DNA of 64,000 bases from Spirochaetia bacterium (GTDB taxonomy: Bacteria > Spirochaetota > Spirochaetia > SP-2023). The stretch is from assembly GCA_965263295.1 (NCBI GenBank), contig OZ253665.1, forward strand, positions 2,080,001 to 2,144,000, given 5' to 3'. Position numbers and translations under genes: made by a program. A model generated the notes under the pieces. It was given only the letters and a program-made list of their open reading frames with translations. It searched no databases and was not told where the DNA came from. Each line of letters starts with the position of its first letter. Position 1 is the first letter of the stretch. Shown here in pieces: positions 3,411 through 34,090 of the stretch.

Positions 3411-3656
3411 CTAAATTTCGTGCCTTTTCGCCGTCTTCGTGCCTTTCGTGGTTCCGGGCCGAGTAACCACGAAAAACACGAAAAAGTACGAACGACACGA
3501 AAAATCCTAAAACACCGCGCCTGCTGCCTGGACGCCCCCGCGGCTCCCGTCGCCCCTTTTTTAACTTTTCCCCGGTCACCCACAGCCCCTCTGCCACCAT
3601 TTCGTGACATTTCGCCGTCTTCGTGCTTTTCGTGGTTCCTCTTTCGTGGTCCCGGA
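3411..3656. repeat. CACGAAA-phased palindromic repeat cluster A
   Basis: TTTCGTG.. and ..CACGAAA arms, homologous to 5633-5966 and 27775-28279. Confidence 0.9.
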
Positions 3657-3762
3657 TGAAAAACTTGAGCATAGGCTGCCGTCACTCACGCTTGATTGAC
3701 TACGATGCCTAGATCCCTTCCATGATTATTACATAGTTGAACGCAATGGCTCTCATTTCATT

Positions 3763-5424
3763 CTAGTCTTCCCCATTAGCGCCCTCGCCCTCGCGGTAGA
3801 GATGCAAGTAACACGTTCGCATTACGGGTCTACTCCGTCCGCCATCTTCATCTATTGCCGTTATCGCAAACTCCAATTTAATGGGGTCAACACCATTCTG
3901 CTCCTTTTCAATCTCCTCCAGTAACTCAGATCTCACAGTTCTACTAAAAAATGAGCGCTGTTCATCGAAATCGGAGCTCGAGAACTCGTTGTTTTCCATA
4001 TATAAATCGTGATTATTGACCTTCCATTCCCACGTATAAATATAGCCATCCATGTCCTCAGCGACCACATCCAAATAAAAATCTCTTATGTAATTATTCT
4101 CCATAAAAAAAGTTTTATTTTCCGGGGCTGAGACCTCCTTAAACTCTGACGTCGGCACCACGTTCACGTTCAGTGTTCGAGATATCGGAACTTCCACCCC
4201 CATGTCATCCGTCACCGTTACTTTTACCACCACCTTGTGGGGGTCGCCCTCAATCTGCGATTGCCCCTCTTTCAGCGGCGAGTACAAGGTCAGGCTTGCT
4301 TCCGGGCCTGTTTCGCCTTCCTGCTCCACTCCATTGACCTCCCAGCGGTAGGTCAGCTCACCACCATCTTCGTCATTACCTTGAACAATGAAGGTCTGCG
4401 GCGTGCCAGTATTTATATCCGCAAGATGAAACCATTCATCCTCTGCAACCGTCGTCCCATCTTCATCAAACTCTGGCCTCGGCGCATGGTTGGCCTGCAG
4501 GGTCAAGCGGTAGGTTGCTTCGGCACTGTTGCCGTCCTCATCCGTGACCGTCACCCGCACTTGATACGGATCCTCACTTGCTTCAAAACCCTGCGTTGCC
4601 AGCGTAAAAGCCTCTGTCTGCGCGCCTAGCGTCCAGTCGCCAGCCCCAGGTGCCTGGTACTCCCACAGATATTCAAAGACACTTGATTCCGGTGATTCCT
4701 CGTCGCGCACATTCACCGCAAACTCAATATCCTGGCCCACCCTGGCCGTGCCAGAGTCCCCAACCGTCGGCCGCGTAAAGCTCAGCGGCGCGGCCACATC
4801 CGTCAAGAATTTTTCCGGCAGCTCAATGCTGGCCGTGGCCTGGAATTGCCCTTCGGCAGTTTGGGTGGCCAAGAAAGCTTCAACCACCACCTCTAATTCA
4901 CCGGCGGAAATATCGGACCATTCAACAGGCAAATAATCTTTCCAATCTTGAGGATCGAGGACAAAAAATTGTTTTTCACCCTCTACCGCCGTGATCTGAT
5001 ATTCAGTGGCATCGCCGCCATCATTGTAATTTTCACTCCGCTGCAGCCAGAAAGTTTCGGCAATTTCATCCGCAGTCTCAGCAGAATCTTCATCTGTTTC
5101 TGCACTTTCGGCGGCTTCATCTGTCGCCTCACTGTCTGCCATTTTCTGGCGCAGACCCCAACGCACGGCCACATCAGCCCAAAAATCGGCCAGCTCCTGC
5201 GCGGCCAGCTCGCTATCTTCCAAGACGATGTGCTCGTCTTTAATAAAGGAATCAATATAAAATTGTATTTCCCCGGTCTGCTCAAGTCTCTTTGAGTCCA
5301 GGTCAATTAATGTTTTGGGCCCAGAGTCCGAATCGGATGAATCATCCTCACAACCCCAAACAAACAGGGCCAAAAGCGCGAGACTGACGGCAAAGAGCCG
5401 TTTAAAAATTAGACCAGATGACAT
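3763..5424 (-). CDS. Surface lipoprotein with three Ig/PKD-like domains, paralog 1
   Basis: Signal peptide with LFVWG-C lipobox; acidic protein; three repeats of D-x-D..Y-x-W ... (V/I)T(V/A)xD-x-x-G; AAGGAGG RBS. Confidence 0.8.
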   Translation of the reverse strand: MSSGLIFKRLFAVSLALLALFVWGCEDDSSDSDSGPKTLIDLDSKRLEQTGEIQFYIDSFIKDEHIVLEDSELAAQELADFWADVAVRWGLRQKMADSEATDEAAESAETDEDSAETADEIAETFWLQRSENYNDGGDATEYQITAVEGEKQFFVLDPQDWKDYLPVEWSDISAGELEVVVEAFLATQTAEGQFQATASIELPEKFLTDVAAPLSFTRPTVGDSGTARVGQDIEFAVNVRDEESPESSVFEYLWEYQAPGAGDWTLGAQTEAFTLATQGFEASEDPYQVRVTVTDEDGNSAEATYRLTLQANHAPRPEFDEDGTTVAEDEWFHLADINTGTPQTFIVQGNDEDGGELTYRWEVNGVEQEGETGPEASLTLYSPLKEGQSQIEGDPHKVVVKVTVTDDMGVEVPISRTLNVNVVPTSEFKEVSAPENKTFFMENNYIRDFYLDVVAEDMDGYIYTWEWKVNNHDLYMENNEFSSSDFDEQRSFFSRTVRSELLEEIEKEQNGVDPIKLEFAITAIDEDGGRSRPVMRTCYLHLYREGEGANGED

Positions 5425-5553
5425 ATCTGTATCCTCCTTACGAATGAATGTGGGCTACAAATTTTAAATGAGGAACGATATGGAATAAGAAAATAATAAT
5501 ATTGGTTCGCAGGCACGGGCAAAATTGCCAATAGAAGCACCTAGAACATTTCT

Positions 5554-5582
5554 AGTATATAGCCCCAAACCAACTTTGACAA
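5554..5582 (-). promoter_or_regulatory. Sigma70-type promoter of lipoprotein paralog 1
   Basis: TTGTCA-17 bp-TATACT on the minus strand. Confidence 0.7.
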
Positions 5583-5632
5583 GTATTTTAAAATATTTTA
5601 CAAAATATTTTCGCCTTTCCCCTTCAGAGACT

Positions 5633-5966
5633 CTGGCCAAGTAACCACGAAAAACACTAAAAAAATACAAAACAACACGAAAAATTCTAAAATTCTAAAG
5701 AGCCCATCCGCCTGGACGCCCCCCGCAGCTCCCCATCGTGCCACCCGCGGCTCCCCCGCCTAAATTTCGTGCCTTTTCGCCGTCTTTCGTGCCTTTCGTG
5801 GTCCCCGGGCCAAGTAACCACGAAAAACACTAAAAAAGTACGAAACGACACGAAAAATTCTAAAGCGCCGCGCCTGCCTCCCTGCCACCCGCGGCTCCCC
5901 AGCCTAAATTTCGTGCCTTTTCGCCGTCTTCGTGTACTTTCGTGGTTCCTCTTTCGTGGTCCCGGA
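5633..5966. repeat. CACGAAA-phased palindromic repeat cluster B (two units)
   Basis: Two consecutive units of GGCCAAGTAACCACGAAAAACAC..CCTAAATTTCGTGCCTTTTCGCCGTC. Confidence 0.9.
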
Positions 5967-32082: not shown

Positions 32083-32088
32083 AATCAA

Positions 32089-32119
32089 GGGGTTGATTAA
32101 GTCAACCCCATATTTTTTT
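32089..32119. terminator. Hairpin terminator between convergent genes
   Basis: GGGGTTGA-TTAAG-TCAACCCC followed by a T run. Confidence 0.7.
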
Positions 32120-32207
32120 CCCCCCCATACGGGACTTGCAGAGACCCGTATATTCAAGGGCTCAGAACTTTCCAATAATATTTTCTCAGGTCCGTCAGAG
32201 AATTACG

Positions 32208-33620
32208 CTAATACTTTTCACTGGAACTCAGAACTAAATCATTAGAGTTATAGATTTGGCGATCTAAGGTTCCATTTCTCTTTGCCGTAAGCAGCCCCGA
32301 AAGAATGGAGTCCGAAATATTAAGTGCCGTCCGGCCCATATCAATCAAAGCCTCCACTGATATCAAAATGGCGGCAATGTGAATATCTAGTCCCATGATG
32401 GTCAGTACGGCAATGGCAGCAAACGTGGCGCCCCCTCCTACGCCGGCGATGCCAAAAGATGAGATGGCAATGACGGCCAGTAGATAAAGGATAAAACTAA
32501 AATCGATGCTAACTCCCATTATTTGCGCAGACATAATGGCCAGCATGGCCGGGTAAATTCCGGCGCAACCGTTCTGGCCAATGCTGGCGCCAAAAGTAGC
32601 CGACAAGTTTGCCGTTTCTTCATCGATGCCCAATCTGCCTGTCTGAGTTTCGATATTCAGCGGGATTGCGGCCATACTGGAGCGAGAACCAAATCCAAAT
32701 ACTAAGACGGGCAGAGATTTTTTTACAAATTGAATTGGCGATAGGCGAAAGAGGCCAACCATCATCACATGAATGACATACATGGCCACAATTGCAGCAT
32801 AGCTGGCCGCTAAAAAACGGCCAATTTCAGCCAGGGCAAACAAGCTATTTGTCATCATGAAACGAGTCATCAAGGCAAATACGCCGTATGGCGTCAATCT
32901 CAAAATCCGGCGAACCATCGACAATACGACTTCTTTACTGGCATTAATAAGCTTAATAAGGGGCTGGACTTTTTCCGCTTTATGCTTCTTGACCTGAAGA
33001 ATACTATAGCCCAGGAACATAGAGAACAAGACCGTAGACAGGGTCGACGTCCTTTGTGAGCCAGTTAGCATGTCAAATAAATTTGCGGGGATGATAGAAA
33101 GCACCAAATGGGCCAGGCCACCGTCTAGCATGGAGGTCTGGGCCTTCATCAGTGCGGCGCCGCGCGCCTCGACGGCACTATTGGCACCAATGCTGTCGGC
33201 AATGGTATGGGCATCAATGCCAAATAAATAGATACTGGCCATACCAACGAGAGCTGCAATAGACACAGTCAAGATTAAAAAACCAATCACTTTAGGCGCA
33301 ATACGAGACAGAACATCCTTGCTCTCGACATTCATAATGGATGAAACCATGGCGACAAACACCAAGGGAATGACAAGCATCTGCAGTAATTTGACATATC
33401 CTCTGGCAAATACGGAAATAAATTGTGAAAACTCATCAATCACGTCATGGTTGATTCCATCAATTCCAAGGATAAGCTGGATGGCTCCACCAAATAACAA
33501 TCCGGCAAACAACGCATTTAGTACACGATAATTAAAACTTTTCCTTTGTCTTTTAAAAAACCATAACACGGCATAAAAACCTAAAAATATTATGCAAAGG
33601 ATAATGAGTGTGAAGCTCAT
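32208..33620 (-). CDS. tcyP: L-cystine transporter (TcyP-like DAACS)
   Basis: SRSS..IP, FGASIGQNGCAGIYP, SSFGIAGVGGGA, DMGRTALN; GGAGG RBS. Confidence 0.88.
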   Translation of the reverse strand: MSFTLIILCIIFLGFYAVLWFFKRQRKSFNYRVLNALFAGLLFGGAIQLILGIDGINHDVIDEFSQFISVFARGYVKLLQMLVIPLVFVAMVSSIMNVESKDVLSRIAPKVIGFLILTVSIAALVGMASIYLFGIDAHTIADSIGANSAVEARGAALMKAQTSMLDGGLAHLVLSIIPANLFDMLTGSQRTSTLSTVLFSMFLGYSILQVKKHKAEKVQPLIKLINASKEVVLSMVRRILRLTPYGVFALMTRFMMTNSLFALAEIGRFLAASYAAIVAMYVIHVMMVGLFRLSPIQFVKKSLPVLVFGFGSRSSMAAIPLNIETQTGRLGIDEETANLSATFGASIGQNGCAGIYPAMLAIMSAQIMGVSIDFSFILYLLAVIAISSFGIAGVGGGATFAAIAVLTIMGLDIHIAAILISVEALIDMGRTALNISDSILSGLLTAKRNGTLDRQIYNSNDLVLSSSEKY

Positions 33621-33987
33621 AACAATTACCTCCAATCCCTCTCATTATTTACCAAATGGAAAAGCCAGACTTTTAAGTTTGAACTTAAAATTAGCCCCCA
33701 ATTAACCCCAAATTAACCCAAAACTAACCTACGGATAAGAGCAGATTATATTCCAGATTAATATATTTCAGAACATTTTTTCAGGATACATATGAAAGCT
33801 ATTTTTTAATATTACAGAAAAATTTATTCAGAATCTACTATATCAAAAAATTTGTGATAATTAGAGTTATACATTATTGACAAAGATTAATCAAGAATAA
33901 GTTTGGGGCAAAATACCCCCTAAGCTCCATTGAAAAATATCTTTGTACTAACGGCATCAAAAACAAAAAAATTAAAGAAAGCTCCCT

Positions 33988-34090
33988 GTCCCCCCACGGC
34001 TCCTCTGTCTACCTTTCGTGAGCTTTCGCAGTCTTCGTGCCTGTCGTGTTTATGGAGCCAGGGAACCGATGAAAGGGTACCACGAAAGGC
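33988..34090. repeat. Degenerate CACGAAA repeat cluster F
   Basis: TTTCGTGAGCTTTCGCAGTCTTCGTG...ACCACGAAAGG. Confidence 0.6.

Follow-up and report, generated by a model that had tools for sequence, protein, structure and literature searches.

What are the short, phased repeats that recur along one stretch of a spirochaete chromosome, where did they come from, and what has spread them? The stretch (the window) is 64,000 nucleotides of DNA from a Spirochaetia bacterium, positions 2080001-2144000 of a one-contig genome of 2.41 Mb (G000:C1) that is 92.6% complete. Three FlaA proteins are encoded in it, against none in 14 control genomes, which marks the organism as a spirochaete. A preliminary description of the window had reported a repeat family made of two roughly reverse-complementary arms bearing CACGAAA-like motifs, had suggested that similar repeats flank genes of the GxxExxY family in other bacteria, and had proposed an element mobilized in trans. 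That interpretation is partly supported. Comparison of sequences makes it almost certain that the repeats are patchwork copies, without a gene of their own, of the pair of inverted arms flanking the genome's single GxxExxY gene, which sits in the densest array of the genome, 180 kb from the window. The suggested tie was correct, and the family is, as described, dispersed, non-coding and linked to a GxxExxY gene outside the window. Mobilization in trans as discrete units fits the evidence less well than recombination at the arms, which the nuclease predicted from this gene may initiate.

All six sites named in the preliminary description are present in the window. The two-word pattern ACCACGAA-N2-5-CACGAA occurs 9 times there, against 0.00 in 100 shuffles, and AACCACGAAA occurs 166 times in the genome, where about 6 are expected. 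Copies elsewhere, which the description had anticipated, are abundant: a profile search found 162 of arm A (the description's L) and 72 of arm B (its R), 234 arms in total, with 0 in a reversed-genome control. They form 64 loci that together cover about 19 kb (0.8% of the genome), and 13 stubs exist besides. At every locus all profile matches share one strand, the exception, seen by eye, being 33988-34090 in the window. An arm is about 50 nt long, an array of 3-4 phased words, with up to four CACGAA-like words 9-11 nt apart. The 9-10 bp phasing first noticed is borne out in arm A, where 286 of 333 intervals measure 9-10 nt and 46 others 19-20 nt; spacing in arm B is mostly 9-11 nt. The words look like binding sites, and they are conserved across copies whose linkers vary. 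The proposed L-spacer-R unit exists in 53 full copies, with a G-rich patchwork spacer of 29-176 nt (50% G), but it is one arrangement among several: neighbouring arms pair as AA 70 times, AB 62 times and BA 38 times, with about 16 nt of linker between a B and the A that follows it. The 64 loci are all essentially intergenic, 13 of them beginning within 16 nt of a same-strand stop codon, and elements take all four orientations to their neighbour genes (24, 18, 15 and 7 cases). One element end, at G000:C1:1937254-1937276, lies about 12 nt from the 3' end of a tRNA-Pro gene. G-quadruplex patterns, counted without a control at 29 of the 64 loci, are not used as evidence.

Long hairpins had been expected of these units. 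The arms are inverted, as described, but the unit at 27788-27995 folds modestly (z -1.7 as DNA, -2.7 as RNA), and A and B are, by their sequences, two separately homogenized families. Covariation between the arms was not seen: cognate pairs in the 53 full units fold no better than shuffled pairs (p 0.85 as RNA, 0.92 as DNA). Of the two strands, that of the element forms the better arm duplex in 53 of 53 units when taken as RNA and in 51 of 53 when taken as DNA. In a set of 60 arm pairs drawn from 45 relatives, G.T mismatches are as frequent as A.C mismatches (0.83 and 0.82), and linkers match at 3.68 of 6 when swapped, 3.47 in register and 3.17 when shuffled. The hairpin reading of the units is weak. 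Because the words are conserved while the linkers are free, protein-binding boxes appear to fit the phased words better than a selected stem does.

The genome's sole GxxExxY gene (G000:C1:1901341-1901742, minus strand; PF13366, E 4e-43; TIGR04256) lies within the largest and densest array. Its stop codon is the start of an arm B, and an arm A lies about 125 nt upstream. CACGAA arrays stand inverted on both sides of the gene in 54 of its 80 nearest relatives, which are 62-81% identical and come from many phyla, and in 0 of 63 distant control windows. A search blind to the word itself detected such arrays, inverted and phased, at 129 of the 169 GxxExxY loci that could be scored and at 3 of 126 controls (of 188 loci, 11 lacked a near-full gene and 8 had short flanks); the more distant GxxExxY proteins have arrays of other words. 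We also surveyed 61 genomes, G000 and 60 relatives from its order and class. At least five arm matches were found in 6 of the 17 with a PF13366 match and 0 of the 44 without, kin among them not being independent; G000 has 160 matches and the next highest genome 20. In the same-genus genome G003 these searches turned up neither a GxxExxY gene nor arms, and G001-G003 gave no match to the composite element.

In relatives the cassette often sits at operon junctions, just before genes apparently for type I and type III restriction-modification subunits (N-termini read by eye), and single arms lie in frame within type III Mod genes whose homologues are without them. Such in-frame arms, for example as TTKDTK inserts, occur at L039:727-880 and 1926-2060, in L113 and L115, at L119:1408-1530 and in L005. 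Near the Mod C-terminus of L039 a short stretch is enclosed between one left and one right arm, and the Mod start occurs twice, around the GxxExxY cassette. A GxxExxY subgroup in other genomes of the spirochaete's class (L008, L009, L013, L016, L022-L025, L030) lacks close phased arms and has a conserved, hairpin-like upstream leader. The family's function is listed as 'Unknown', with multiple transfers (PMC3424549). Our full-text literature search, mostly outside subscription papers and without supplements, returned no description of GxxExxY arms or their expansion.

The protein has 133 residues and a single nuclease domain, modeled with pLDDT 90. Its best structural matches are PD-(D/E)XK nucleases, foremost Cas4 SSO0001 (Foldseek E 5e-5, TM 0.57; VIA Z 8.0, rmsd 3.3, 98 aligned, where a Z of about 8 is near background). 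Residues E38, D78, K90, Q102 and Y106 are invariant and E88 nearly so; together they match RecB motifs I-III and the QxxxY motif described for Cas4 (PMC8610317). A PD-(D/E)XK fold with intact RecB/Cas4-type motifs is predicted, the structural match bearing on fold, not function. Searching solved structures by sequence gave weak T7 endonuclease I matches only (E 0.12-0.6); a likeness to resolvases is no more than a lead. No recognizable strand-transfer domain was found in the 133 residues.

The window shows what has become of the arms away from this gene. Its elements, with their direction from A to B on the minus strand at 3409-5966 and on the plus strand at 24816-28282, and the genes beside them are as follows.

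3195-3408, minus strand: module of about 200 bp without CACGAA words, directly after the last arm A; five further genome sites.
3409-3656, minus strand: element of the form A-spacer-B-A, lying downstream of lipoprotein copy 1; its arms are A at 3599-3656, B at 3458-3517 and A at 3409-3455.
3763-5424, minus strand: predicted surface lipoprotein, 553 aa, with Ig/PKD-like domains and a signal ending Gly-Cys by eye; cargo between two elements.
5618-5966, minus strand: element A-B-A-B and a linker, separating the two tandem lipoprotein genes; next comes a sigma70-like promoter (5582-5554).
5950-8032, minus strand: element-bounded cassette with a lipoprotein gene inside (6073-7821, 582 aa).
8020-8045, minus strand: stub of arm B tip plus linker, start of the cassette's homology to its copies; the 8045 junction is bridged by contigs of runs X1, X3 and X4.
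24816-24841, plus strand: two-word arm A stub, 9 nt past the stop of gene 23794-24807; a promoter-like module common to other loci starts at 24880.
26675-27673, plus strand: lipoprotein-like gene upstream of the 27775 array, in strain X3 more divergent than adjacent DNA.
27775-28282, plus strand: array A-B-A-B-A, containing two units of 223 nt that are 98% alike; it is preceded at about 27735-27770 by a hairpin that looks, by eye, like a terminator.
33988-34050, minus strand: degenerate arm A and spacer start.
34058-34090, plus strand: linker and one-word start of an arm A, seen by eye and under the profile threshold, back to back with the minus-strand arm.

Genes beside elements are duplicated far more often than others. 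With genes predicted by a simple caller (1858 in the genome), 26 of 103 element-flanking genes have a paralogue at 80% or above, against 18 of 1586 other genes. Every member of three families touches an element: the window's Ig/PKD lipoproteins (7 of 7), a coiled-coil, nuclease-like family (5 of 5) and a tandem coiled-coil family (9 of 9). Eight tandem copies of the last, a gene of 130-160 aa, occupy G000:C1:1906700-1913000 (L205), each followed by an element; they differ in heptad repeat number, and a ninth lies at 1930 kb. The five-copy family (G000:C1:133144, 683002, 732125, 898428 and 1453667) is always antisense to its flanking elements and has weak REase matches only; it is possibly a second nuclease carried as cargo. 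Where elements bracket a gene, those on its two sides run in the same direction in 22 of 25 cases, and in 2 of the other 3 the scoring script misread the strand of short B arms.

Cassette 5950-8032 is 98.4% identical to G000:C1:989090-991172, 1.1 Mb away. On the left its homology begins at the B tip that the preliminary description had called a stub, and on the right it runs through the element into the shared module of about 200 bp. That module (3195-3408) is non-coding and 79-96% conserved at six sites, the others being at 557.6, 723.1, 991.5, 1882.8 and 1913.1 kb, in some places right after an arm A and in others with no element near. Its presence at five other sites means that the duplicated block reaches beyond element 3409-3656. 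Single flank classes are joined through an element to 2-4 different opposite flanks, one upstream flank to 3-4 downstream ones and conversely, as expected from crossovers inside elements. In the sister species G002, 4 of 5 arm loci (5 of 10 matches were examined) lie between or beside tandem paralogues of other gene families. Taken from these sequence patterns, the elements very probably behave as recombination joints, with crossover inside them. The gene that precedes the 27775 array shows 13 differences over 700 nt in strain X3, against 32 over about 9 kb of neighbouring DNA; a single gene is concerned, and surface genes are variable in any case. The major X3 contig skips 286 nt at the 3' end of this gene (27380-27667), a low-depth contig having the window form.

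Homologous crossover does not account for every site. Unique flanks surround 22 of the 64 loci, and in three conserved genes (RsmD-like, HAD and M48) the C-terminus is made of arm sequence. The preliminary description had likened the family to miniature inverted-repeat transposable elements (MITEs), a likeness that did not hold: target-site duplication was absent at the 24 of 64 loci scored (4.8, against 5.0 shuffled), and element ends are not fixed, their truncation points varying. A fixed cleavage position at the stubs was sought and not found. In strain X3 elements 24816 and 33988 are spanned, and the 27775 flanks run into the array; short-read contigs break at arrays, and the joints listed are mostly other repeat copies. 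Replication polarity is visible per locus (48 of 57 and 48 of 60), whereas per cluster it is 25 of 36 (p 0.03 against 0.5, p 0.07 against the 56% gene bias), too weak for a single-strand mechanism to be rested on it. Codon-based strand calls over the whole chromosome give 34-48 switch points, and many small inversions are likely; elements as their breakpoints did not prove robust, the result depending on the setting. The skew minimum is in or near the window.

These observations would be joined by the following mechanism. The predicted nuclease would bind the phased CACGAA words of the arms and nick near them; host repair would then cross over between same-direction elements, yielding tandem amplification, relocation and chimeric arrays of predicted surface-protein genes, and occasional illegitimate repair would seed new arm sites. 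Resting on sequence and on a predicted fold, nuclease-initiated recombination at the arms is, taken whole, an account toward which we incline slightly. The step of nuclease initiation, taken alone, is somewhat more probable than not; we infer that the protein binds and cuts, that host recombination takes part, and that there may be an advantage such as surface variation.

Several results weigh against this account. Of 21 paralogue families, 12 do not touch elements; the 989-kb cassette copy shares about 170 nt past its right element; and the count of duplication ends near an element (21 of 84, null 1-2%) is inflated, because masking ends alignments at elements. Arm words cluster weakly on the protein tree (17 changes, 20.6 when shuffled), a poorly resolved quick tree of 125 rows from which wordless loci and duplicates were excluded and to which the genome's own gene was added under a manually assigned label. 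In 11 of the 17 genomes with a PF13366 match there are fewer than 5 matches to the CACGAA-type arm word, and G002, which is 89% complete, has 10 arm matches, yet its sole GxxExxY match is differently flanked. One truncation lies at a 6-nt microhomology, with no cut site visible, no empty site was seen in X3, and the 8045 junction is common to X1, X3 and X4. Strand-switch points fall at elements in 10 of 48 cases (p 0.003) or 5 of 34 (p 0.12), depending on the setting. Finally, in seven close relatives the first codons of the gene double as the left arm; the coded 5' arm of G000 is colinear with those of 7 aligned relatives, which are nearly intact, but all three of its words are broken. Words are also missing from the coded 5' arm in 35 of the 80 relatives. 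The decay suggests, as far as sequence can, that the gene is immobilized in G000.

The main rival takes the arms for a passive relic: derived from the cassette, they would now spread and recombine solely through ordinary homologous recombination, through slippage and through being carried along with duplicated genes, the nuclease being idle. Repeats of 50-250 nt are sufficient substrates for RecA. Variable ends, microhomology junctions, the lack of an empty site in X3 and the decay of the gene's own 5' arm all agree with such a relic, as does G002, where arms stand beside tandem genes and no GxxExxY gene of the CACGAA word type was found. We nevertheless regard it as unlikely. The gene is intact, with all its catalytic residues, in a 2.4-Mb genome where other mobile DNA has decayed: a second, unrelated dispersed family consists of transposase remnants with many stops (42736-43100, 43821-44310 and 57381-57747 in the window, and at least a dozen further genome sites, 70-90% alike; weak DDE_Tnp_1 match, E 0.004), which we take from their motif to be IS5-like. 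The gene lies, moreover, inside the largest array, the words are conserved while linkers vary, and the 22 loci with unique flanks need non-homologous insertion.

Less well placed is a reading of the GxxExxY protein as a transposase that acts in trans, moving A-spacer-B units by cut-and-paste or peel-and-paste as in MITEs or REPINs. The arm-gene-arm layout at operon junctions in many phyla, the unique-flank loci, the arms inserted at gene 3' ends and in frame, and the partial replication polarity (25 of 36 clusters) would all suit it. It is improbable given the absence of target-site duplications at 24 loci, of fixed ends and of any empty site seen, the chimeric spacers and surplus of A arms, and a 133-aa protein with a single nuclease domain and no recognizable strand-transfer domain. 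More doubtful still is a gatekeeper role, in which the nuclease would cut incoming or exposed single-stranded arm DNA and so limit exchange of the flanked genes, as SsnA does on NTS repeats clustered beside membrane-protein genes (PMC11893778). The better arm duplex of the element strand (53 of 53 units as RNA, 51 of 53 as DNA) would agree, but this bias may be mutational skew; the equal rates of G.T and A.C mismatch and linkers that are not register-specific give no sign of strand-specific hairpin selection, and element-adjacent genes are amplified, not protected. That the repeats are kept mainly as hairpins at mRNA ends or as promoter-terminator spacers, which their intergenic position at all 64 loci, the 13 starts within 16 nt past a same-strand stop, promoter-like modules following 10 and 4 elements and an RNA z of -2.7 might suggest, is scarcely credible, since elements lie in all four orientations to neighbours (24/18/15/7), the promoter modules belong to particular cargo families, one of them occurring also without an element (3 of 7), and there is neither an Rfam match nor covariation.

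Other features of the window lie apart from the repeats. An open reading frame without a Pfam match (11615-12376) and a 12-nt tandem repeat (11625-11684) overlap. The final 76 nt of the fumarase gene recur 1.5 kb off at 95% identity (13766-13841 and 15283-15358). Gene 1921-2832 had no match in G001-G003 with the query used. In an Rfam scan of the window the sole match was a tRNA, and the repeats matched no RNA family.

GxxExxY is a large family of unknown function, and this genome offers a candidate substrate for it: a defined word array and a 133-aa enzyme with an intact predicted site, together with dozens of natural recombination products available for comparison. If the enzyme cuts the arms, it would be a new fold among nuclease-plus-repeat systems and a mechanism for surface-gene diversification in a spirochaete, and very small sequence-specific nucleases, each with its own word, might be obtained from the family. 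Otherwise the repeats are a lineage-specific bloom from cassette ends, of moderate interest.

Set against known systems, the partner gene is a full member of the GxxExxY/PDDEXK_3 family (TIGR04256, PF13366), and for the way the arms would work the closest analogue, though the system is not a member, is the Neisseria NIME arrays with the nuclease SsnA. NIME arrays (dRS3 plus RS) set inverted arms around variable spacers beside surface genes (PMC1797815). In both, short inverted arms with variable spacers stand in mosaic arrays by surface-protein genes and have been put forward as substrates of recombination, the gene of a small single-domain nuclease has the repeat on its flanks, and one lineage shows strong expansion. 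Ssn-paired NTS repeats likewise cluster beside membrane or surface-protein genes, the surface location being predicted here. However, SsnA is a GIY-YIG enzyme (cd10448) shown to cut single-stranded hairpins (PMC11893778), whereas the enzyme here is a predicted PD-(D/E)XK nuclease of RecB/Cas4 type, and unlike NTS the arms are arrays of about 50 nt with 3-4 phased words. The only GIY-YIG match in the genome (PF01541) is in a 687-aa frame, the arm-flanked gene being PF13366, and the Ssn paper makes no mention of GxxExxY.

Resemblance to repetitive extragenic palindromic (REP) sequences, REPINs and BIMEs with their RAYT proteins extends to one resident gene in a repeat cluster, tandem doublets, intergenic dispersal and a protein that crosses phyla (PMC3116915). 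The arms here, by contrast, are not self-palindromic 20-40-nt REPs, and no excision footprint was seen. Nor is there a fixed hairpin doublet: spacers span 29-176 nt, AA is as common as AB, and cognate arms do not covary. A RAYT or Y1/HUH partner, which the preliminary description had suggested looking for, was not found in this 92.6% complete genome (PF01797; the profile matched 6 of 14 control genomes), and for its four-helix-bundle alternative there was one sub-threshold match, at 61.7 kb, about 18 kb from the nearest locus. Since the enzyme fold differs, the system is a member of neither Ssn/NTS nor REPIN/RAYT.

With MITEs such as Correia, RUP and ERIC the elements have in common gene-less inverted arms, fusions to the 3' ends of reading frames and pairs flanking passenger genes (PMC3184786), and the 53 full A-spacer-B units resemble terminal inverted repeats around a non-coding core. 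They differ in having no target-site duplication, no conserved core and no link to the genome's IS5-like remnants, and as typical MITEs they were rejected on duplication and fixed ends by the criteria of the same paper. The IS5-like remnants are a family separate from the arms, mostly kilobases away from elements, and no IS110 was found in the genome. Integron attC arrays run gene-repeat-gene in one direction, their sites having imperfect inverted arms around a variable spacer. Same-direction gene-repeat-gene arrays and inverted arms with a variable spacer occur here too, but these arrays contain near-identical genes. No integron integrase is adjacent, two tyrosine recombinases lying about 46 and 55 kb from the nearest element locus.

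Tentatively, then, and short of expecting it, we suggest that nucleases paired with repeats may include a third class, the GxxExxY proteins, unrelated to RAYT (HUH) and to Ssn (GIY-YIG). Its members would be minimal PD-(D/E)XK enzymes, similar to Cas4, that read phased word arrays. The spirochaete copy would be immobilized, its more than 230 arms serving across the genome as a system of cassettes by which surface-protein genes are amplified, relocated and reshuffled, in convergence with the Neisseria NIME arrays.

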